This document shows positions 3,660-37,640 of a stretch of 64,000 nt of DNA, piece after piece. Below the pieces are notes generated by a model. That model had not been told where the DNA came from. It saw only the letters and a list, made by a program, of their open reading frames with translations, and did no database searches. How positions within the stretch are numbered: position 1 is the first letter of the stretch; each line of letters begins with the position of its first letter. The DNA is from Patescibacteria group bacterium (GTDB lineage: Bacteria > Patescibacteriota > Minisyncoccia > Portnoybacterales > UBA2143), in assembly GCA_018830295.1 (NCBI GenBank), contig JAHJSM010000001.1, positions 257,980 through 321,979 of the forward strand. Direction: 5' to 3'. The position numbers were made by a program, and so were the translations under genes.

Positions 3660-5689
3660 AACTAATTATCGTAGAAAGCCCTACAAAGGCAAAAATAATT
3701 TCCAAGTTTTTAGGCAAAAACTACAAGGTCTTGTCTTCTTTTGGGCATCTCCGCGATTTGCCTAAATCAGAACTTGGCATAGACACAGAAAAAAATTTCG
3801 CGCCCAAATATATTATTCCCGTCAAAGCGCGAAAGGCGGCTAACGAATTAAAAAAAGCCGCCAAAGAAGCAGATTTAATCATTCTTGCGACTGACGAAGA
3901 CCGCGAAGGAGAAGCCATCGCTTGGCATATTCTCCAAATTTTTGAAACCGCCAAACCCAAGGCGCATCAAAGAATTGTTTTTCACGAAATAACGGAAAAA
4001 GCGATTAAGGAATCGTTGGAAAATCCGAGAGAAATTGATATTAATTTAGTCAACGCCCAACAGGCGCGGCGAATTTTAGACCGCCTCGTCGGATACGAAC
4101 TCTCGCCGTTTTTGTGGAAAAAAGTAGTCAAAGGATTGTCAGCTGGAAGAGTCCAGTCAGTCGCCGTCCGCCTCATTGTTGACCGCGAAAGGGAAATAAA
4201 AGCGTTCAAACCGGAAGAATACTGGAGCGTTGAAGCGGAATTAAAAAAGCGCGATAACCCCAATCAATTCATCGCGCATCTTATCAAAACGGGCGATAAA
4301 AAAATTCCCAAAATGGGAATAAAAAATAAAGAAGAAGCGGACGCGATTTTAAAAAACCTTGATGGAGCCGAATACAAAATCGCCGCCGTGGAACGCAAGG
4401 AATTAAAAAAACATCCCATGCCGCCATACAAAACGAGCGTCCTCCAACAAGACGCGGCGCGCAAACTTGGCTTTTCCGCCAAACAAACAATGCGAATCGC
4501 CCAACAACTATACGAAAACGGTCACATCACCTATCATAGAACCGATTCGTTTAATATCGCCGCCGAAGCGCTCGCCTCTGCGCGCGAATTTATTAAAAAC
4601 AAACTCGGCGCGAAATATCTTCCAGACGCTCCCAAATTTTACAAAACAAATAAAAAAGGCGCGCAAGAAGCGCATGAAGCAATCCGCCCAACCCATCCAA
4701 AATATGAACCGTCCGAAATTAAGCAATATCTCAATCCGACCCAATACAAATTATATAATTTAATTTGGCAAAGATTTATCGCCAGCCAAATGAATCCCGC
4801 TATTTTGGATTCCGTCTCCGTTGATATTTTAGCGGAAAAAACAAAAGGCGTCCCACATACATTCCGAGCCAACGGTTCAACAATTAAATTTGACGGCTTT
4901 TTAAGAATTTGCCCGATGAAATTTAAAGAGAATGTTCTGCCCCCGCTCACGAAAGACGAACTCTTGAAATTAATTAAACTCATTCCTTCCCAACATTTCA
5001 CCCTCCCGCCCGCCAGATACAACGACGCCTCGCTTATTAAAATTTTGGAAGAATACGACATCGGCCGCCCCTCAACTTACGCGCCGACTATTAGCACAAT
5101 TCAAGACCGCGGCTATGTTAAAAAAGATGAGCAAAAAAGATTTATCCCCGCGGAAATCGGCTTTATCGTCATAGATCTGCTCAAGGAAAACTTTTCCCAA
5201 ATTGTTGATGTTGAATTTACCGCCAAAGTGGAAAACGATTTAGATAAAATAGCCGAAGGCAAACAAGAATGGCAAACGGTTATTAAAGAATTTTACGAAC
5301 CGTTCCATAAAAACCTGCTCAAAAAATATGACGAAGTAGAAAAGAAAATTCTTGATAAACCAACCGAAAAAAAATGCCCCGAATGCGGCAGCCCGATCGT
5401 AATTAAATTAGGAAGGTTCGGCGAGTTTTACGCCTGCTCCGCCTTCCCTAAATGCAAGCACGCCGCGCCAATTATCGTGCCAACCGGCGTCAAATGCCCT
5501 GAATGCGGAAAAGGCGACATCATTGAAAGAAAAACAAGAAGAGGAAAAACATTCTACTCCTGCTCTCAATACCCCAAATGCAAATTCGCCCTCTGGGACA
5601 AACCCACCGGCGAAAAATGCCCCGAATGCGGCGCCCTCATGGTAGAAAAAGGAAAAGCAATTAAATGTTCTAATAAAGAATGTAAATAG
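3656..5689 (+). CDS. topA: DNA topoisomerase I with C-terminal zinc ribbons
   Basis: 677 aa; TOPRIM N-terminus, active-site region 'GHITYHRTDS', three CPECG zinc-ribbon motifs at the C-terminus; 4-nt overlap with dprA. Confidence 0.9.
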   Translation: MKLIIVESPTKAKIISKFLGKNYKVLSSFGHLRDLPKSELGIDTEKNFAPKYIIPVKARKAANELKKAAKEADLIILATDEDREGEAIAWHILQIFETAKPKAHQRIVFHEITEKAIKESLENPREIDINLVNAQQARRILDRLVGYELSPFLWKKVVKGLSAGRVQSVAVRLIVDREREIKAFKPEEYWSVEAELKKRDNPNQFIAHLIKTGDKKIPKMGIKNKEEADAILKNLDGAEYKIAAVERKELKKHPMPPYKTSVLQQDAARKLGFSAKQTMRIAQQLYENGHITYHRTDSFNIAAEALASAREFIKNKLGAKYLPDAPKFYKTNKKGAQEAHEAIRPTHPKYEPSEIKQYLNPTQYKLYNLIWQRFIASQMNPAILDSVSVDILAEKTKGVPHTFRANGSTIKFDGFLRICPMKFKENVLPPLTKDELLKLIKLIPSQHFTLPPARYNDASLIKILEEYDIGRPSTYAPTISTIQDRGYVKKDEQKRFIPAEIGFIVIDLLKENFSQIVDVEFTAKVENDLDKIAEGKQEWQTVIKEFYEPFHKNLLKKYDEVEKKILDKPTEKKCPECGSPIVIKLGRFGEFYACSAFPKCKHAAPIIVPTGVKCPECGKGDIIERKTRRGKTFYSCSQYPKCKFALWDKPTGEKCPECGALMVEKGKAIKCSNKECK

Positions 5690-29348: not shown

Positions 29349-29798
29349 ATGCCGACTCTCGCTATTAACCCACGAGCCAGATATGATTATGAAATTTTAG
29401 ACACCTACGAGGCTGGAGTGGTTTTAATTGGACAAGAAGTTAAAGCGATTAAAAGAGGAAGCATCAGTTTAAAAGGCGCTTATGTCGCCATTAGAAATAA
29501 CGAGGCGTGGCTCATCAACGCGCAGGTCTCTCCCTACCAGCCCAAAAATACACCCGCCGATTATGACTCAACCCGTTCTCGAAAATTGCTTCTTCATAAA
29601 AGCGAAATTAAAGAGTTAATCGGCAAGACAAAACAAAAGGGCTTGACTTTAACGCCCATCCGCGTTTATACTAAACAAAATCAGATTAAACTGGAATTCG
29701 GCTTGGGTCGCGGGAAAAGAAAATCCGACAAGCGGGAAAAAATTAAAAAGAGAGAAACACAAAGAAAAATCAACCGCGCGCTGAAGGAATGGTTTTAA
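29349..29798 (+). CDS. smpB: SsrA-binding protein
   Basis: 149 aa; SmpB fold pattern with basic C-terminal tail. Confidence 0.9.
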   Translation: MPTLAINPRARYDYEILDTYEAGVVLIGQEVKAIKRGSISLKGAYVAIRNNEAWLINAQVSPYQPKNTPADYDSTRSRKLLLHKSEIKELIGKTKQKGLTLTPIRVYTKQNQIKLEFGLGRGKRKSDKREKIKKRETQRKINRALKEWF

Positions 29799-29802
29799 AA
29801 AA

Positions 29803-30220
29803 GGGGATGATTGGCTTCGATGAAAGTCAATTTCTTAATAAGCAAGACGAGTTTAATCGAACACTCGTTAAAGATCGATTAAGATAATAAATGTCAATTT
29901 ATTTTCAAAGGCAAGGAACGCGGTAGCTTCGCTATTTAGCGCTCCGAACCTGGCTTTAGCTGTCGCCTAAATAATTAGTCAACAGCCGTTCAAACCTTTG
30001 ATTCCTGATAGAGGGATTTGAATGTCATTTTTCAGGATAAGCGGACAAAATTATCTCGCTTTGACCGCCGACAACTTAGGGGTAAGAATTAGAAATTTTT
30101 TGTTTAGTTTTAAGTTTTTAATTCTTTAGTTCGCTTTTGGCGAACAAATTAAACTAATCTAATCTTGTAGAATTATTAAGAATCAACTTTTAGACGCGGG
30201 TTCAATTCCCGCCATCTCCA
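29803..30220 (+). ncRNA. ssrA: tmRNA (transfer-messenger RNA)
   Basis: Starts GGGGATGATTGGCTTCGA 5 nt after the smpB stop; ends with tRNA-like GACGCGGGTTCAATTCCCGCCATCTCCA (acceptor GGGGATG/CATCTCC, CCA not encoded); internal tag ORF ends ...CTGGCTTTAGCTGTCGCCTAA (L-A-L-A-V-A-stop). Confidence 0.8.
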
Positions 30221-30245
30221 CTCGGTAAAAAGCAAAATAAAAACT

Positions 30246-31003: not shown

Positions 31004-31351
31004 ATGACACGAGTAAAAAGAGGAATAATGGCCAACAAGCGCCGCAAAAATATCCTTAAATTGGCGAAAGGGTTTAAGTGGGGCAGAAATGTAAAATATA
31101 AATTAGCCAAAGACGCGCTTAAACACGCGTGGACTTACGCTTATCGCGACCGTAAAGTGAGAAAGCGGGATTTTCGCCGCCTCTGGCAAATAAAAATCAA
31201 CGCCGCCGTCCGCCAGCAAGGCGTCACATACAGCCGTTTTATTGAGATATTAAAAAAGGCCAAGATTGAATTAGACAGAAAAATCTTGGCAAACTTAGCC
31301 GAAAAAAAACCAACAATCTTCGCGAAGATTGTTGAGAAGATAAAGGGATAA
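31004..31351 (+). CDS. rplT: 50S ribosomal protein L20
   Basis: 115 aa; 'MTRVKRG..ANKRRKNILKLAKGF' typical L20. Confidence 0.9.
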   Translation: MTRVKRGIMANKRRKNILKLAKGFKWGRNVKYKLAKDALKHAWTYAYRDRKVRKRDFRRLWQIKINAAVRQQGVTYSRFIEILKKAKIELDRKILANLAEKKPTIFAKIVEKIKG

Positions 31352-31353
31352 AA

Positions 31354-32286
31354 TTATATCTCCACGACAAACAGGTCTAAAGCGGTGAGGATGCCTGCGC
31401 GGCCTGTTTTTGTTTTTGTTTCAATTTCCAAGAGGCGGCGGTAGATTGTTCGCAAATGATCTAAACTAAAATTCGCCGCTTGTTGGGCCGTCTTTCTGGC
31501 GACAAAAGGATGCAACCCGCTCTTTGCCGCCAACGATGGAAAAGGAATTCCCTTTTCCATTAAGTCCTTGATTTTAAGCAAATTCCTGATCTGGTAAACA
31601 AACATGGAAAATAAATAATTTTCGTTGACCCCCTGATTAAGATGCTGGTGTAAAAGACGCAAGGCGTCTTTTTTGTTTCTCGCCGCCAAGGCGTCAATCG
31701 CCGCAAAAATATTAAGGTCTGCCTCCGACTTGACCATCAAGACCACGTCTTCTTTAGTAATAGAGTCGTTTTTTTTGTATCCGACCAGCTTACCGATTTC
31801 GTTGCTCATCTGCCAAAGGTCGCCCCCAACACGAAAAGAAAGCTCGCTCACTGCCCCGCTATCAACAACGCCTCCGTTTTTGGAAACTTCTTTTTTTATC
31901 CAATTCGTCAGCCCAGCCCCCTTGAGCGGAAGAAACTCTTCAAACATATTAACTTTTTTCTTCAAAACAGACGCCGCCAATTTCCCTTCTTGAAACAAAA
32001 CCGCGATTATGTCTTGGTTATTCTTAATCTTGTTTTTCTTGGCGTACTCAAAAAAATCTTTTTGAAAATCTTTCTCTTTAATAACATTTTCCAAAATAAT
32101 CAGTTTTTTTTCACTAAACATTGAAACCGCCTCAATTATATTTTTAACTTCGCCAAAGTCAAAATTCTTCTCGTCAAAACGCGCGAAACTCAACCCGCTC
32201 TGATGCTTGTTTTTGTATCCCGAAACAATCTCTTTTAATTTTTGTCTAAGGCGATATGTATCCTCGCCATAAAGTAAAATAATCAT
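31354..32286 (-). CDS. holA: DNA polymerase III delta subunit
   Basis: 310 aa; N-terminal 'ILLYGEDTY' clamp-loader delta pattern. Confidence 0.7.
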   Translation of the reverse strand: MIILLYGEDTYRLRQKLKEIVSGYKNKHQSGLSFARFDEKNFDFGEVKNIIEAVSMFSEKKLIILENVIKEKDFQKDFFEYAKKNKIKNNQDIIAVLFQEGKLAASVLKKKVNMFEEFLPLKGAGLTNWIKKEVSKNGGVVDSGAVSELSFRVGGDLWQMSNEIGKLVGYKKNDSITKEDVVLMVKSEADLNIFAAIDALAARNKKDALRLLHQHLNQGVNENYLFSMFVYQIRNLLKIKDLMEKGIPFPSLAAKSGLHPFVARKTAQQAANFSLDHLRTIYRRLLEIETKTKTGRAGILTALDLFVVEI

Positions 32287-32394
32287 AGATATAGATTATA
32301 AATTAAAACGCCAACACAATCAATCTATTGTACCCATCAGGCGCATACAAAATATTGATTTATTTTATATTTCTGTGTAATAGGTGCGCATTTT

Positions 32395-32520
32395 CCCGAC
32401 CACTTTTTACTTGGCGATTTTTCAATTTGATAAAAAAGGTCTGACATTGCAAGTAGAGACATTTCCGAAGGTCTCGCTTGAAAGGTCGGACCTTTTTTAA
32501 AATAACAATTTTTTAATCAC
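32395..32520. repeat. direct repeat copy A (CCCGACCACTTTT...AATTTGATAAAAAAGGTCTGAC...TTTTTAATCAC) with a 45-bp internal insertion relative to copy B
   Basis: Read directly; about 85% identical to 34141-34221 excluding the insertion. Confidence 0.65.
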
Positions 32521-32524
32521 CTAA

Positions 32525-32881
32525 CTAAATATCAAAATGTTTTTTCAAATAATCTTTTATCTGTTTAATAATTTTTACATCCGCTATGCCAATTTTATTA
32601 ATAAATCTTAAATAATCAAAAGAGCAAACATTGTAAACCTTAATAATTGAATCGCTAATTAATTTATTATCATTGTTTTTGGTAATTAAAATATCATCCG
32701 CCATCTTGTTCTTTAAATTTGAAGTCAACGGAACAACCGTAATTAAGTTCGTTTTTCTAATTTGTTTTTCGCTTTCAATAATAACAGCAGGGCGTTTGCC
32801 TTGATATTCGTATCCAAAACTTGGATCAAAATTAACTAAAAATATCTCTCCTTGTTTAAGTAGTTTTTTGTCTATGCTCAT
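32525..32881 (-). CDS. MazF/PemK-family endoribonuclease toxin-like protein
   Basis: 118 aa; 'GEIFLVNFDPSFGYEYQGKRPAVII...VVPLTS' matches the PemK/MazF SH3-like barrel signature. Confidence 0.75.
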   Translation of the reverse strand: MSIDKKLLKQGEIFLVNFDPSFGYEYQGKRPAVIIESEKQIRKTNLITVVPLTSNLKNKMADDILITKNNDNKLISDSIIKVYNVCSFDYLRFINKIGIADVKIIKQIKDYLKKHFDI

Positions 32882-33633
32882 AAATTTTCGTAATATTCAA
32901 CCTCTTTCTTTGAGATTAGACCCAAATCTTTCAAAACATCATTCGCCCCAGTTTGAATAAAGTCAGACAATTCGTCTGGCTTTTTTAGGACATCCACCAC
33001 CAAACCATTAATAAGATGCTCCGTATAATCGTTTTCGTGAATATAAATCGGAGGATAGTCGCGGCTTGATTCTGATAATAAGACGACCTGTTTGTTTTGT
33101 TTATCAAAAAACAATTTTTTAATATTGGCGCAACCATCAATAATTGAAACTACGTAATCACCGCTTTTCGCTCTTTCTCTTTTTTTATCCACCAAAACCA
33201 AGTCGCCCTCTTCTATGCTTTTTCCCTCCTCGGATACTTTAGCCCGATTCATAGAATCTCCCACCGCCCGCAGAACAAAAATATCTTTGACCCTTTTCGC
33301 GAGAGAACGACCAATAATGCCGATTGAAACTTTAACAAACTCGCTCGCTGGAATATCATCGGCGAAAGAAAGCGCCTGCCCGCAATTAGCGTCGCCTAAA
33401 ATAGGAAGCGAAATCAATCCGTCTTTTTGATTAACTCCGGATTTGGTCTTTACTATTTTATCTCCCTCCGCGTTCACCAAAAGCAAGCCCGCCTCAATCA
33501 ATTTGCCGAGATGATGTTTAATCTTTTGAGGGCTGCCCTTCTCTCCAATTAATTCGCCAATCCGACGCAAAGTCAAATCAGCCAAATTATTATCTTCCGC
33601 CAAACCTAAAATTTTTTGTTGAATTTTGTGCAT
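32878..33633 (-). CDS. lexA: LexA-like repressor (winged HTH + S24 peptidase) with C-terminal extension
   Basis: 251 aa; N-terminal LexA DNA-binding domain, cleavage-site-like 'LGDANCGQALS', S24 Ser-Lys dyad ('GDSMN' ... 'NIKKL'); about 37 extra C-terminal residues; 4-nt overlap with the mazF-like gene. Confidence 0.75.
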   Translation of the reverse strand: MHKIQQKILGLAEDNNLADLTLRRIGELIGEKGSPQKIKHHLGKLIEAGLLLVNAEGDKIVKTKSGVNQKDGLISLPILGDANCGQALSFADDIPASEFVKVSIGIIGRSLAKRVKDIFVLRAVGDSMNRAKVSEEGKSIEEGDLVLVDKKRERAKSGDYVVSIIDGCANIKKLFFDKQNKQVVLLSESSRDYPPIYIHENDYTEHLINGLVVDVLKKPDELSDFIQTGANDVLKDLGLISKKEVEYYENL

Positions 33634-33870
33634 AATTAAATTCTACACCCATTCTTATCCCCAGTCAAGTAAATCTTGACACAAGGTAAGCGTTGACAAA
33701 GAAATTAATTTGGAGTAAACTAAAATATAAGCCTAAAAATAAAACAGGGTCAACGCTAAATGGTCGAACCCTGTTTGAGAATATGTTAGGTCGATTCCTA
33801 GACATATTAACCTTAATTAACAGGATAACACATTTTCAATTTTTGGGAAAATAATATTGAGATTACTAAT

Positions 33871-34077
33871 ATGAATAAATATTATGTTAATAGAAACGCG
33901 CAAGCGAACGGAGATCACGAAGTACATAAATTTGGTTGCCGATTTATGCCTAATCCAGAAAACAGACAGTATCTTGGTGAATTCGCAACATGTCGCAGCG
34001 CAGTTGCAGAAGCAAAAAAACATTATCGACAATCAAATGGATGTTATTATTGCTCTAACGCATGCCATACACAATAG
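33871..34077 (+). CDS. small Cys-rich protein (putative zinc-binding), divergent from lexA
   Basis: 68 aa; Cys pattern C..C...CYYC..AC; followed by a good intrinsic terminator; the overlapping opposite-strand ORF is less plausible. Confidence 0.45.
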   Translation: MNKYYVNRNAQANGDHEVHKFGCRFMPNPENRQYLGEFATCRSAVAEAKKHYRQSNGCYYCSNACHTQ

Positions 34078-34091
34078 TTAAAGGTGTGTCA

Positions 34092-34127
34092 CCCCTGTCG
34101 CGCTTTGTGTGACGGGGGTATTTTTTT
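34092..34127 (+). terminator. intrinsic terminator CCCCTGTC-loop-GACGGGGG + TATTTTTTT
   Basis: 8-bp stem with one G-U, T-run follows. Confidence 0.55.
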
Positions 34128-34140
34128 GGCAAAAAGGCTC

Positions 34141-34221
34141 CCGACCACTTTTCTCTTTGCAATTTTTTAATTTGATAAAAAAGGTCTGACCTTTTTAAAT
34201 TGGCGGCTTTTTAATCACTTT
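34141..34221. repeat. direct repeat copy B (CCCGACCACTTTTCTCTTTGCAATTTTTTAATTTGATAAAAAAGGTCTGACCTTTTT...TTTTTAATCAC)
   Basis: Read directly; partner of 32395-32520. Confidence 0.65.
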
Positions 34222-34310
34222 CTGTTCATGGGGACAGTCCCCCGTCTGCGGGGGCTGCCCCCATCATCTGCTTTTCTAAAAAGTTCCTGACACCTTTTTA
34301 CTTTATAATA

Positions 34311-34919
34311 TTATATACTTTTTAATACTTTAACTTTTTCTTTATTTATAAAAACAGCATAACCTTTCAATTGCTTCGCTAATTCTTCCTTTGTCTGATG
34401 AATGGGGATGCGTTGCATCTCAAACTTTATCTGACATAAAAAAAATAATAAAAATTGTTTTAACCGACTTTCGCTACCTTTAATATTTTTGAATTTTTCT
34501 TCAAATTCTTCAGGACTAAAATATCCTATTTCAGATCTATGTCCTACAAAATTATGCCTCCATGCAGAAATATAATCTATGTCTTCTTGAATTTTTTTTA
34601 TCTCAACATTAAACCAACTTTTTAAATCTTTATTTGGTATATTTTTAACAATATACCACACATTAAAAACACTATTATTTTTATCAAACAATTTCCAAAG
34701 TTGAAGAATAGCATAATTCTCTAATGCAACATGCGAAAATGAAGTAATTGCATTATATTCTTTTCTCTTAGATGCGCGCTTATAGCGATAATCTCTCATT
34801 TTATCTCGAATCATACTCGAATGAAAAGCCTGCATAATAAGTTCATGCGCTTCTTTGTATATTCTAACTGGGTTATTTGTAATTAAATCGATCTTATTCT
34901 TTAGATTTTTGTTTTGCAT
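34311..34919 (-). CDS. hypothetical protein, possible HEPN-like partner of the R-M enzyme
   Basis: 202 aa; 4-nt gap from upstream R-M gene (operon); 'RHNFVGH' fits an R-x(4-6)-H HEPN-type motif, a weak call. Confidence 0.4.
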   Translation of the reverse strand: MQNKNLKNKIDLITNNPVRIYKEAHELIMQAFHSSMIRDKMRDYRYKRASKRKEYNAITSFSHVALENYAILQLWKLFDKNNSVFNVWYIVKNIPNKDLKSWFNVEIKKIQEDIDYISAWRHNFVGHRSEIGYFSPEEFEEKFKNIKGSESRLKQFLLFFLCQIKFEMQRIPIHQTKEELAKQLKGYAVFINKEKVKVLKSI

Positions 34920-34922
34920 AGT

Positions 34923-37640
34923 TTAATTCTCCACAATTCTAACTTCCTCTTCTGTTAACCCATATAATTTATAAACTTTTTGGTTTATAATCTCATCAAT
35001 TTTTTGTATTTCTAATTCTGTTTCTTCGTATTCTTTGTCGTCCATAATTGGATGGAGTTTTTGGAGTTCTTCGCTTAGTTTTAACATTTTGTCGGCTAAT
35101 TTTACTAATTCGTTGTGTTTGGCTTTTTCTTTTTTGTCGGAAAAATCAATTTTGTAAATCGGAATTTGCGAGGTATAGATTTTTTTAAATCTTAAAAAAC
35201 CGCCGCTTACATGTGTATCTTCAAATCTTTGTTTAAAATAAAAATCTATCAGTTTAGAGTTAATGATAGCCAAAATATATTTTAAGTCATAATCAAGCCC
35301 AATGGGCTGAATAGAATAAAGCGTGTTGACCGAATAATAACCCTCATCGTCAAAAACAGCTTCTGGAAACTTTGAAATATCCCTTAACAAAATTTTTGGC
35401 TTTTCAAAATAACTTTCTGCGCACAAATTGGCATATTCCCCCTTGTTTTTATCTATCAAACTTTTGTCGTATCTGACATATTTACCATCCCATTTAAGCC
35501 AATATCTATGACAATCCCTGCCTGCCAATAATTTTTTGCAAGTATCATCAACTTTTTCGTTAACAATTAATTTGCTTCTTATGTTCCCCGTATGAATTGT
35601 CTCTTTAATTTCCGCAACTTCTCCTAATCGCAACGATTTTTTTTCAATTTTTTCAAAAAAATCTGGCTCTGTTTTAACAGTCAAATTTTTGTCTCGGCTT
35701 TTATTAATTTTATCTTGGTCAATTAGCACCTCGCCAGCATAAAGATTGGTTTCTTTTTCTATTTTGTATCCCTTAATTTTATGTCCTGAATTATTTTTGT
35801 CTTTTTGTAAAATAATGACATAGGGATAGGTGGACGCGTCCTTAAAAACCAGTAAATTAGAAACATCAACAATAGAAATAATTTTGCAGTTGTCTAAAAT
35901 ATATTCCCTTAATTTTTTTCCGTAATCAGCAATGGCGTATTTGTTGGAAGTAATAAATCCCAAATACCCGCCCTCTTTTAATAATTTAATGGACTGCTCA
36001 AAAAACAATTGATAAATGTCATATTGTCCAGCGGCTGAACAGTATTGTGCATCAAAATATTTTTTATCTTTTGTCTCTAAGTCCCTGTTTCTAATATACG
36101 GCGGGTTGCCGATGATTACATCAAAGCCGCCTTTTTTGAGGACATCGGGGAATTTTTCTTGCCAGTTGAACGGTCTTTTTTCTTTCCATTTTTTACCGAA
36201 ATATTTTTTGAGTTCTTTCTCCGTGCCTGAAATTAAAGAATTTCCGCGTTTAATATTGTAAGATAAATCCGGCAAAAGTTCGCGGAATTCCAGCGCCTTA
36301 ATCAATAAGTTGAGTTGGGCGATTTCAATCGCCTCCTCGTCTAAATCAACGCCATATATGTTTGAATTTAAAATAGAAATTTTGCGGATGTAATTAACTT
36401 CCGGCTTCGCTTCAATTTGATTATTTACTCTCTTGATGTGGCTATCCAAAACCTCAAACGCTTTAATTAGAAAAGACCCCGAGCCGCAAGCCGGGTCAAG
36501 AATTTTAATTTTCACCGCCTCATGCCCCGGCTTGTCTTTCAGCACTTCGCCTAATGTGTTTTTGATAATGTAATCAACAATGTAGCGAGGGGTATAATAA
36601 ATGCCTTGCGATTTTCTTTTACTATTCTTCTTTTCCTTTTTTTCCAGTTGAATCTTGCTTAAATATTGCTCGTAGACGCTACCTAAAATATCGGCGTTAA
36701 TTGACGCGAAATTATAGCGAATGCCTTTTTTGTTTTTATAAAATTCTCTAATTACTTCCGCTAAAAAATCGTCTTGATATTCCAAAATATCGCAAGTGTG
36801 CTCATCAAATAATTTACTATCGTAGATCTTCCGATAATACCCGAATAATTCCTTAATTTTCTGCCACAAAAAATCTGTTTTGTCTTGATTGTTTTCCCAG
36901 TTCCTAATCGCTTCGCGCAATTTTTGGTCTTCAATCCCCCTGTCCTCGGTGGTTCTGATAAAGATAAATCTGTTAAGCAGTTTTTGAACGCTCTCAATGA
37001 TTTGTTGGTTGCTAAATTTTTTGTCGTCGTTCCACCCTCTCAACTTATCAAATAAAATCCTTCTCCACTTTATTAAGTCGCTCGCTAATTGCTTATCAAC
37101 TGGCTCCCTTTTTGGTTTTTTGAAGTTCTCTTCGGCGTATTTATTCAACTCGCCTTTTTCAATGGACTCTTTGGATAGCCACCACAACCTCTTGTCGGTC
37201 AGATAATCTTTATATGGAATTTCAAAAAGCAAACTTTGCTCAATGTTTGGCTCGTCCCATTCTGCGTTAAAAACCTTGATTGACTCAAAATCCGTTAGAA
37301 TCGCCCAAGAAATACTTTTATGCCAAGCATACATTACCGCCTGCTCCGACCATTTTTCCTCGCGCAAATCAACTTCTATCTTTTTGGCTTCCACGAAAAA
37401 TTTTATTACTCCGTCAACATTAAAGGCGTAATCAACTCTTTTGCCGGAAACCTGTTTTTCGGAAATAACTTCATTTTTGGAAAAACTATTATAAACATCC
37501 CAGCCCAAAGATTGAAAAAGAGGCAAGATAAAATCCTTGCAAGTCATTGACTCGTTATATTTCTTGCGTTGCGCGGCAGTCAGCACTTCATATCTGCCTA
37601 TCAATTTTTCTATTTGTTTGACACCTTCTTGCTTATCCAT
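34923..37640 (-). CDS. Type IIG restriction-modification enzyme (MmeI-like: N-terminal PD-ExK nuclease + N6-adenine MTase + TRD in one chain)
   Basis: 905 aa; N-terminal nuclease motif 'RVDYAF...FFVEAKK', MTase motif I 'DPACGSGSFL' and motif IV 'GNPPYI', C-terminal target-recognition region. Confidence 0.75.
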   Translation of the reverse strand: MDKQEGVKQIEKLIGRYEVLTAAQRKKYNESMTCKDFILPLFQSLGWDVYNSFSKNEVISEKQVSGKRVDYAFNVDGVIKFFVEAKKIEVDLREEKWSEQAVMYAWHKSISWAILTDFESIKVFNAEWDEPNIEQSLLFEIPYKDYLTDKRLWWLSKESIEKGELNKYAEENFKKPKREPVDKQLASDLIKWRRILFDKLRGWNDDKKFSNQQIIESVQKLLNRFIFIRTTEDRGIEDQKLREAIRNWENNQDKTDFLWQKIKELFGYYRKIYDSKLFDEHTCDILEYQDDFLAEVIREFYKNKKGIRYNFASINADILGSVYEQYLSKIQLEKKEKKNSKRKSQGIYYTPRYIVDYIIKNTLGEVLKDKPGHEAVKIKILDPACGSGSFLIKAFEVLDSHIKRVNNQIEAKPEVNYIRKISILNSNIYGVDLDEEAIEIAQLNLLIKALEFRELLPDLSYNIKRGNSLISGTEKELKKYFGKKWKEKRPFNWQEKFPDVLKKGGFDVIIGNPPYIRNRDLETKDKKYFDAQYCSAAGQYDIYQLFFEQSIKLLKEGGYLGFITSNKYAIADYGKKLREYILDNCKIISIVDVSNLLVFKDASTYPYVIILQKDKNNSGHKIKGYKIEKETNLYAGEVLIDQDKINKSRDKNLTVKTEPDFFEKIEKKSLRLGEVAEIKETIHTGNIRSKLIVNEKVDDTCKKLLAGRDCHRYWLKWDGKYVRYDKSLIDKNKGEYANLCAESYFEKPKILLRDISKFPEAVFDDEGYYSVNTLYSIQPIGLDYDLKYILAIINSKLIDFYFKQRFEDTHVSGGFLRFKKIYTSQIPIYKIDFSDKKEKAKHNELVKLADKMLKLSEELQKLHPIMDDKEYEETELEIQKIDEIINQKVYKLYGLTEEEVRIVEN

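Follow-up and report, generated by a model that had tools for sequence, protein, structure and literature searches.

A LexA-type self-cleaving repressor as the probable antitoxin of an adjacent MazF toxin in a Patescibacteria genome

What holds a MazF-type RNase in check when the gene directly upstream encodes a LexA-like repressor and no recognizable antitoxin gene is present? The question arises from a 64,000-nt stretch of a Patescibacteria group bacterium genome, called here the window, in which an earlier note had described a LexA-type protein with an acidic C-terminal extension overlapping a MazF/PemK gene. That observation is confirmed. On the minus strand, a 251-aa ORF (32878..33633) and a 118-aa ORF (32525..32881) share the four bases ATGA at 32878..32881, which hold the stop of the first and the start of the second and suggest translational coupling. 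Because the genes overlap, no ORF lies between them, and a search of 31300..34400 for Rfam families (E≤1) and tRNAs found neither, so no hidden RNA antitoxin was detected. The arrangement is not a chance one, since it recurs in at least 35 species-level genomes and at least 18 metagenome contigs, and most of the 35 MazF-linked genome loci show the same 4-nt overlap.

The first protein matches Pfam Peptidase_S24 (6e-14, 52 bits, cutoff 23.3) and, over residues 21-218, NCBIfam lexA TIGR00498 (1e-14), although its score of 54.7 bits is below the curated equivalog cutoff of 110.95; it is a LexA-like S24 repressor and not demonstrably the LexA ortholog. Its AlphaFold model (pLDDT 83) best matches the full-length LexA structures 3JSO (a LexA-DNA complex), 3K2Z, and 1JHH in Foldseek comparisons over about 225 columns (E about 1e-10), which places a winged helix-turn-helix and an S24 domain in one predicted chain. 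The N-terminal winged helix-turn-helix (aa 1-68; 33430..33633, minus strand) is predicted to have helices at residues 3-12, 22-28, and 35-47, followed by beta strands, and its recognition-helix motif SPQKIKHH (S34-H41) is invariant. The predicted self-cleavage site, Cys84-Gly85 (33379..33384), is of the UmuD Cys-Gly type, and residues 85-89 form a low-pLDDT loop, as expected for a flexible cleavage-site region. Ser127 (codon 33253..33255), the S24 nucleophile, aligns with the GDSM motif of UmuD', and Lys172 (codon 33118..33120), the general base, lies in NIKKL and aligns with ftvKKL of UmuD'. C84, G85, S127, and K172 are each conserved in 38 of 38 tail-bearing homologs.

By alignment to UmuD', the S24 domain ends at about residue 217. 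The extension, which canonical LexA lacks, is thus residues 218-251 (32881..32982, minus strand; KPDELSDFIQTGANDVLKDLGLISKKEVEYYENL), 34 aa rather than the ~37 given in the note, with a net charge of -5 over its last 32 aa and two predicted helices at 221-236 and 242-249.

The second protein matches PemK_toxin PF02452 over its full length (4e-20, 72.4 bits, cutoff 23.1; residues 9-116 on profile positions 1-109) and the solved chains of MazF9 from M. tuberculosis, Kid, and E. coli MazF, down to 2e-8. Among 26 homologs Arg30 (codon 32792-32794) is invariant and Thr53 (codon 32723-32725) is at least 90% conserved; in an ungapped BLASTP alignment, for which the E. coli sequence was not retrieved from a database, they align with the catalytic R29 and T52 of E. 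coli MazF. The toxin therefore appears competent, as judged from sequence alone, and its pI of 9.4 is complementary to the charge of the acidic tail.

The two genes appear to form a single operon with its own regulatory elements. A sigma-70-type promoter was predicted at 33640..33668 (minus strand; 10 of 12 matches), with a -35 TTGACT (33663-33668), a 17-nt spacer, and a -10 TAGAAT (33640-33645) that ends 6 nt before the ATG, so that the mRNA would be leaderless or nearly so, an inference from spacing only. A candidate operator (33664..33699) consists of the inverted repeat GTCAAG-N5-CTTGAC (33664-33680), which overlaps the -35, plus a third half-site, GTTGACAA (33692-33699). TGTCAA/TTGACA half-sites occur 2.0 times per 150 nt upstream of tail-bearing homologs and 1.5 times upstream of tail-less ones, against a background of 0.11. 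Two patterns with other spacings found nothing, and the scan with the appropriate spacing found the only tight cluster of half-sites in the window at the gene's own promoter; no recA gene lies in the window. Downstream, a long hairpin flanked by an A-run and a T-run (32431..32499) is a likely bidirectional intrinsic terminator; it folds at -24.9 kcal/mol (z = -4.3, with 0 of 200 shuffles as stable), although a simple terminator scan did not call it.

The limits of the unit were defined by comparison with a metagenome contig, L088, whose MazF is 97% identical. Near-identity begins at the outermost operator half-site and ends just after the terminator hairpin, giving a 1.27-kb cassette (32434..33703, minus strand) in unrelated flanks. 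Among the loci compared, the neighboring genes (holA, rplT, and others) are shared only with the closest relative, L001, on the holA side, and we rejected a conserved core-genome location. These contexts bear on the possibility that the LexA-like protein is the ordinary housekeeping SOS repressor and that MazF is a selfish passenger, its antitoxin tail fused onto an indispensable host gene to secure retention, with no adaptive role in damage sensing. In keeping with that view, the recognition helix and operator half-sites are shared with tail-less homologs across Patescibacteria, only one MAG contributed two of the 80 loci kept, and MazF pseudogenes occur. However, a cassette that carries its own operator and terminator into different flanks fits a mobile unit better than a fixed core gene, and no further operator-like clusters were found in the window, though 64 kb is a small sample. 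We consider this explanation unlikely.

Does the tail belong with the toxin? Of 37 assessable tail-bearing loci among 80 homologous loci, 35 have MazF immediately downstream and 1 has a MazF remnant, whereas none of the 39 counted loci without this tail has MazF (Fisher 6e-21). One tail-bearing LexA-like protein is followed by a Bro-N protein instead, and two tail-only ORFs have no MazF nearby. Starting instead from MazF, with a search based on 7 close sequences, all 31 close relatives have an upstream partner ending in the motif YY-x-x-L, against 2 of 47 distant MazFs, which instead have 75-aa RHH-like antitoxins (Fisher 1e-19). Besides the LexA-like proteins, these partners are Xre-HTH+SocA_Panacea proteins (Pfam 4e-18 to 2e-19), weak Phd/YefM-type and AbrB/MazE-type proteins, an RHH-like protein, and a 66-aa stand-alone ORF directly upstream of a 52%-identical MazF. 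The LexA, Panacea, and stand-alone contexts are well supported, but the Phd, RHH, and AbrB contexts are more tentative, since similarity of their tails is limited to the terminal D-F-L...E-L-x-Y-Y-x-x-L motif and is weak or undetected with the tail profile.

Tail sequence follows the MazF clade and not the N-terminal chassis: tail identity correlates with MazF identity even between different chassis (Spearman 0.50 for cross-chassis pairs, 0.71 overall; Mantel 0/2000), and LexA- and Panacea-linked MazFs are intermixed in neighbor-joining trees, which are rough, lack support values, and were used only qualitatively. Tail and MazF are adjacent in the DNA, however, so that co-inheritance alone would also produce this correlation. 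The tail is retained where MazF has decayed, by truncation at one locus and by frameshift at three, which is the pattern expected of a toxin/antitoxin pair.

The note had offered two readings, and its interpretation is partly supported. The first, that MazF is an SOS-induced effector with no protein antitoxin and that the LexA-like protein only represses transcription, with the tail serving, for example, as a degron or a dimer contact, has in its favor the single operon behind an operator-bearing promoter and the precedents of SOS-induced toxins such as SymE and TisB (PMC1891008). It cannot explain why the same tail sits on Panacea, Phd-like, AbrB-like, and stand-alone proteins directly upstream of this MazF subfamily, nor why tail-less LexA-like proteins in the loci counted never have MazF, and basal MazF co-translated without an inhibitor would be toxic. 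We regard it as very unlikely. The second reading, that the LexA C-terminal tail neutralizes MazF, is strongly supported by comparative genomics, but its further step, that RecA-stimulated autocleavage unleashes the toxin, has a logical gap. Cleavage at C84-G85 would detach the DNA-binding domain and leave the tail on the S24 fragment, so that release needs a further step, such as degradation of that fragment, and derepression alone would make more antitoxin as well as more toxin. The three findings that the note said would count against it were not obtained: the catalytic residues are present, no intervening antitoxin was found, and the arrangement is widely conserved.

The explanation we favor, with moderate confidence that rests more on the antitoxin role of the tail than on the trigger, is a two-gene type II toxin-antitoxin cassette in which the antitoxin is a LexA-type self-cleaving repressor. 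In this view, the winged helix-turn-helix would bind the GTCAAG-N5-CTTGAC operator over its own -35 box and repress the operon, the intact S24 domain would serve as autoprotease and dimerization domain, and the acidic two-helix tail would bind and block the basic MazF RNase, as a linear neutralization element of the kind described for modular antitoxins. By analogy with MazE2-(MazF2)2, a LexA-like dimer would hold two MazF dimers. A RecA-ssDNA filament, arising from DNA damage or phage replication, would stimulate self-cleavage at Cys84-Gly85, derepressing the operon and creating an S24-tail fragment that, like the E. coli LexA C-terminal fragment, is degraded by housekeeping proteases, whereupon MazF would be freed to cleave RNA and arrest growth. 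The analysis itself shows the domain architecture, the conserved catalytic and cleavage residues, the co-occurrence of tail and MazF, the portability of the tail, the boundaries of the cassette, and the conserved operator-like repeats. The rest we inferred: binding of MazF by the tail is likely, operator binding somewhat less so, RecA-stimulated cleavage is rather more probable than not, and toxin release as a consequence of cleavage remains tentative; the RNase activity and toxicity of this MazF are likewise inferred.

A more conventional alternative is an addiction or stabilization cassette, in which the tail neutralizes MazF but the S24 domain is only a dimerization and DNA-binding chassis, interchangeable with Panacea, Phd, RHH, or AbrB; toxin activation, if it ever happens, would depend on ordinary turnover of the tail or loss of the cassette, and cleavage would at most derepress transcription. 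The free exchange of chassis around a constant tail and MazF shows that no particular chassis would be needed for neutralization, near-identical cassettes sit in different flanks, cleavage would not remove the tail, and transcriptional induction of type II operons often occurs without toxin liberation. On the other side, C84-G85, S127, and K172 are fully conserved in the 38 homologs despite only 45-81% overall identity to the window protein, which argues that self-cleavage itself is selected and not just the fold. We consider this alternative the less likely of the two.

The cassette shares with the MazE-MazF, PemI-PemK (Kis-Kid), and EndoAI-EndoA systems a toxin of the same family with conserved catalytic Arg and Thr, an upstream gene overlapping that of the toxin, an acidic C-terminal segment as the presumed neutralizing part, and likely autoregulation through an N-terminal DNA-binding domain. 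It differs in that the N-terminal 217 aa are a LexA-type winged helix-turn-helix plus S24 domain, with no Pfam match to AbrB (PF04014) or RHH; the protein would work like a MazE but is not a member of that family. A tail profile searched against all PDB chains at E≤10 returned only chance hits (Cas13bt3, cytochrome b5) and no MazE, and against Pfam only APOC4 at 0.095, so there is no detectable homology to MazE/PemI. Classical censuses list only AbrB, RHH, MazF/ccd, and XF1863 partners for MazF (Makarova 2009, PMC2701414).

With the LexA, UmuD, and lambda cI family of RecA-stimulated self-cleaving proteins it shares the full-length LexA architecture, the Ser-Lys dyad, a Cys-Gly site as in UmuD, and a palindromic candidate operator overlapping its own promoter; it differs in the tail, in the sub-cutoff LexA score, and in lying in a mobile cassette with a toxin. 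The LexA-regulated systems tisB-istR1, symE-symR, yafNO, and dinJ-yafQ also link the DNA-damage response to a growth-arresting toxin, but there LexA acts in trans as a transcriptional repressor only and a separate RNA or protein antitoxin exists, whereas here the LexA homolog, encoded in cis, is itself the proposed antitoxin. Exchangeable linear neutralization elements on swappable globular chassis are established for modular antitoxins such as PanA (Panacea/DUF4065) with a Phd-C extension (Kurata 2022, PMC8832971; Ernits et al. 2023, PMC10440598), and Panacea versions of this very tail and MazF unit exist at six loci; the main text of the NetFlax paper does not mention LexA, S24, or peptidase, and the present chassis adds a built-in, predicted signal-responsive protease. 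ImmR/ImmA and COG2856-Xre (Makarova 2009) follow the same logic, with a repressor of a conflict module inactivated by proteolysis in response to DNA damage, but they use a separate Zn-metalloprotease and have no toxin-binding tail on the repressor, whereas cleavage here would be intramolecular.

The only literature precedent found for an S24/LexA-like domain in a predicted antitoxin is that of TADB-predicted Xre/HipA pairs in Campylobacter (PMC7826846), in which the toxin is HipA, the N terminus is Xre-type, and no neutralizing tail is identified; its authors explicitly called it only a prediction. No description of a LexA/S24-type MazF antitoxin was found, in agreement with the note's impression that the arrangement is undescribed, although the literature searched includes few subscription-journal papers and this is absence of evidence only. 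PADLOC defense-system models cover neither protein. A phage origin was also considered, but IMG/VR contains only one full-length relative, which is tail-less, and GenBank phages give two weak matches limited to the S24-domain region, so we rejected a prophage repressor.

How type II toxins are ever released from their antitoxins is long disputed, the generic model of antitoxin degradation by Lon under stress having been challenged, and an antitoxin built on an intact LexA-type autoprotease gives a defined, testable trigger, activated RecA, with simple point-mutant controls (S127A, K172A, G85D). The tail is also a clean natural example of a 30-aa proposed neutralizing module that moves with its toxin between N-terminal contexts, which is useful for understanding and engineering antitoxin modularity, and it occurs in Patescibacteria/CPR, where regulation of the DNA-damage response and of defense is essentially unstudied. 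It is possible, though we hold this only tentatively, that the LexA-like protein is sensor, repressor, and antitoxin in one polypeptide, with RecA filaments on damaged or phage DNA triggering a self-cleavage that both opens the operon and, through loss of the S24-tail fragment, releases MazF; this would be a type II antitoxin with a built-in, signal-specific proteolytic trigger. In many Patescibacteria it might also be the only SOS repressor, so that the SOS switch and a toxin switch would be one molecule. The same chassis with other tails, followed by RhuM, Bro-N, or KilA-N genes, would then hint at a family of damage-triggered LexA-chassis switches for conflict genes.

The two genes lie on the minus strand. 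A 251-aa ORF (32878..33633) and a 118-aa ORF (32525..32881) share the four bases ATGA, which hold the stop of the first and the start of the second. The first protein matches Peptidase_S24 (6e-14) and, over residues 21-218, the NCBIfam LexA model (1e-14), although its 54.7 bits fall below the equivalog cutoff of 110.95. An AlphaFold model built on 22 homologs, with a mean pLDDT of 83, predicts a three-helix winged HTH (residues 1-68), a low-confidence loop at 85-89, a beta-rich S24 core ending at 216, and then two helices at 221-236 and 242-249. Foldseek placed full-length LexA structures first (3JSO, 3K2Z, and 1JHH; about 225 aligned columns, E about 1e-10). The alignment to UmuD' ends at residue 217, so residues 218-251 are an extension that canonical S24 repressors lack, and this extension has a net charge of -5. 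The second protein matches PemK_toxin end to end (4e-20), and its closest solved relatives are Mycobacterium tuberculosis MazF9, Kid, and Escherichia coli MazF. Arg30 and Thr53 align with the catalytic R29 and T52 of E. coli MazF and are, respectively, invariant and at least 90% conserved in 26 homologs. The organism is a Patescibacteria (CPR) bacterium, and an identical protein is on record as NCBI locus tag KKG85_00840 on a 744-kb contig.

A scan of one genome per species returned 80 loci encoding relatives of the LexA-like protein, and these fall into two groups. About 38 carry the C-terminal motif ..D-x-L-K-x-L-G-P-x-S-K-E-E-x-x-Y-Y-x-N-L, and the rest end shortly after the S24 core (..V-I-K-K-P-K) or carry other tails. 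Of 37 assessable tail-bearing loci, 35 have a MazF gene immediately downstream, usually with the same 4-nt overlap; one (locus L021) has only the last 44 codons of MazF, and one (locus L004) has a Bro-N gene instead (4757-5563). None of the other loci has MazF anywhere within 4 kb, and Fisher's exact test on 36/37 versus 0/39 gives 6e-21. While the LexA-like gene and its tail stay intact, MazF is truncated in L021 (4751-4882, only aa 75-118 remain) and split by frameshifts in loci L025 (4756-5093), L037 (4726-5066), and L016 (1193-1535). Toxin decay with a retained antitoxin is the pattern expected for a toxin/antitoxin pair, although these may also be assembly errors. Four other LexA-like homologs (L030, L031, L035, and L036; LexA-like end at ~4735-4750) carry a divergent tail (..DILKYGKPIxxVDY..KKKK) and are followed not by MazF but by RhuM, Bro-N, or KilA-N proteins, yet they nest among the MazF-linked proteins in a rough tree. 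Together with L004, which keeps the MazF-type tail, they possibly reflect cargo replacement on the same chassis. Tail-less LexA-like genes are often followed directly by DNA methyltransferases (D12 or N6_N4 class), a DUF1883-TIR protein, or a GT4 glycosyltransferase (loci L043, L055, L061, L073, and L071), suggesting that the LexA-like gene commonly sits at the edge of defense or variable islands in these genomes.

The tail is a portable module that travels with MazF. A profile of the last 41 residues of the LexA-like protein, searched against 5.8 billion proteins, found 36-66-aa proteins that consist of little more than the tail. One of these, P0135 (66 aa), sits directly upstream of a MazF that is 52% identical to that of the window. 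Two others, P0130 (locus L081, 3001-3138) and P0124 (locus L084, 2395-2541), are orphans with no MazF nearby; one follows an Xre-HTH+Panacea gene and a 125-aa gene and precedes a PIF1-type helicase, and the other lies between an Mrr-type nuclease and a pilin-like gene. They could be remnants or stand-alone anti-addiction antitoxins. We then started from MazF and scanned metagenome contigs. Every one of the 31 MazFs scoring at least 110 bits to the subfamily profile has an upstream partner ending in Y-Y-x-x-L, compared to only 2 of 47 more distant MazFs, which are paired with 75-aa RHH-like antitoxins that lack the motif (Fisher 1e-19). The partners of the close MazFs differ in their N-terminal part: about 18 are LexA-like, six are Xre-HTH + SocA_Panacea proteins of about 280 aa (Pfam 4e-18 to 2e-19), five are Phd/YefM-like proteins of about 80 aa (weak Pfam matches below cutoff for two of them and no match for a third), one is RHH-like, judged by eye only, and one is AbrB/MazE-like, a weak match. 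For the last three groups only the terminal D-F-L..E-L-x-Y-Y-x-x-L part is shared and the tail profile barely detects it, so that part of the claim is more tentative.

In a rough NJ tree of MazF, LexA- and Panacea-linked toxins are intermixed. Tail identity correlates with MazF identity (Spearman 0.71 overall, 0.50 for pairs on different chassis; Mantel 0/2000), and for several Panacea-chassis systems both the most similar tail and the nearest MazF belong to LexA-chassis systems. The heritable unit is thus tail plus MazF, and the N-terminal chassis is exchanged, which is what the NetFlax authors call linear neutralization by exchangeable elements (PMC10440598). Because tail and toxin are contiguous in DNA, this correlation shows coinheritance of a functional unit rather than proving physical contact. 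A MazF acting as an SOS effector without a protein antitoxin, one of two readings offered in the earlier note, is hard to reconcile with the portability data, and we consider it very unlikely. The main rival view is that the S24 domain is simply one more interchangeable chassis and that the cassette behaves as an ordinary addiction module; we regard this as the less likely account. In all 38 tail-bearing homologs, the predicted cleavage site Cys84-Gly85 (the UmuD-type dipeptide), the nucleophile Ser127, and the general base Lys172 are 100% conserved, although these homologs are only 45-81% identical to the window protein. This argues that cleavage, and not merely the fold, is under selection in the MazF-linked proteins.

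Upstream of the LexA-like gene lies a predicted near-consensus promoter with a -35 TTGACT, a 17-nt spacer, and a -10 TAGAAT ending 6 nt before the ATG, a spacing that suggests a leaderless mRNA. An inverted repeat, GTCAAG-N5-CTTGAC (33664-33680), overlaps the -35, and a third half-site lies at 33692-33699. TGTCAA/TTGACA half-sites are about 18-fold enriched upstream of tail-bearing homologs and about 14-fold upstream of tail-less ones (2.0 and 1.5 per 150 nt, against 0.11). Together with the invariant recognition helix SPQKIKHH, this points to a family-wide operator, here inferred from sequence alone; in this window the only tight cluster of half-sites is at the gene's own promoter. A DnaA-box-like motif (TTATCCACA / TGTGGATAA) also recurs in the promoter regions of many LexA-like genes, both tail-bearing and tail-less (loci L021, L023, L030, L035, L036, L043, L047, L059, L061, L062, L067, and others). 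The window has TTATCCCCA (33655-33663), with one mismatch, between the -35 and -10, which could mean DnaA input into this promoter or a second operator.

Downstream of MazF, a long hairpin flanked by A- and T-runs (32431-32499; -24.9 kcal/mol, z = -4.3) looks like a bidirectional terminator. Comparison with metagenome contig L088, whose MazF is 97% identical, showed near-identity starting at the outer operator half-site (~33703) and ending right after this hairpin (~32434), with unrelated flanks on both sides, and only the closest genome, L001, shares the holA-side neighbors. The unit is therefore a 1.27-kb self-contained cassette that has moved between contexts; it was not found in viral collections. 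A selfish tail grafted onto the housekeeping LexA remains possible, although we think it unlikely. Outside the cassette boundary defined by L088 lies a divergently transcribed 68-aa Cys-rich ORF (33871-34077, plus strand; ..HEVHKFGCRF..CRSA..GCYYCSNACH..) that has no Pfam or PADLOC match and is followed by a strong 13-bp-stem terminator (34091-34119); a candidate promoter for it (TTGACA at 33693) coincides with the outer operator half-site of the LexA-like gene.

The earlier note's observation of an overlapping LexA-like and MazF gene pair is confirmed. In the model we favor, the LexA-like dimer would repress its own operon and, through its two acidic tails, sequester basic MazF dimers (pI 9.4); we consider this first part likely. 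For activation, the most economical model is RecA-filament-stimulated self-cleavage at C84|G85. The tail would stay on the S24 fragment after this cut, so cleavage cannot free MazF directly, and release would require either degradation of that fragment, as is established for the E. coli LexA C-terminal fragment, or a conformational effect. That cleavage leads to toxin release is put forward only tentatively. The architecture, the association of tail and MazF, the conserved cleavage residues, and the cassette limits rest on sequence comparison and the predicted structure, whereas toxin activity, neutralization, operator binding, self-cleavage, and release are inferred. The note's second reading is borne out only in part: neutralization of the toxin by the tail is strongly supported by comparative evidence, whereas the proposal that autocleavage unleashes the toxin is plausible but mechanistically incomplete.

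The system resembles MazEF in that the toxin family is the same and an acidic C-terminal element of the upstream protein is the presumed neutralizer, but the antitoxin is not a MazE/PemI family member, since it has no AbrB or RHH domain and no detectable tail homology. It is LexA-like in predicted fold and catalytic features but fails the LexA equivalog cutoff. The known SOS-linked toxins (tisB, symE, yafNO, and dinJ-yafQ) are repressed by LexA in trans and have separate antitoxins. The classical census of MazF partners lists AbrB, RHH, MazF/ccd, and XF1863 only (PMC2701414); the main text of the NetFlax paper contains no occurrence of LexA, S24, or peptidase, and the Panacea paper contains no mention of S24. 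Literature searches for self-cleaving or LexA-like antitoxins, and for LexA with toxin-antitoxin systems in Patescibacteria, returned nothing. The nearest precedent we found is an unvalidated TADB prediction of an S24_LexA-like-domain antitoxin for HipA in Campylobacter (PMC7826846). What distinguishes the present system among type II toxin-antitoxin systems is its LexA-type autoproteolytic antitoxin chassis, with autoproteolysis itself inferred from the conserved residues.

Immediately upstream of the cassette lie a 905-aa type IIG restriction-methyltransferase (34923-37640, minus strand; PADLOC 4e-123) and a 202-aa protein (34311-34919, minus strand) with a weak HEPN_AbiU2 match (5e-4, below cutoff). 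Homologs of the same restriction enzyme lie directly upstream of LexA-MazF in three other genomes (L044, 765-3473; L012, 102-2834; and L033, 2061-2777), so this looks like a recurrent small defense island. Elsewhere in the window (29349-30221), SmpB (29349-29798) and tmRNA (29803-30221, tag ending ..ALAVA) sit next to infC-rpmI-rplT and holA, an ordinary core-gene neighborhood that is relevant here only because MazF-type RNases generate nonstop mRNAs that tmRNA rescues.
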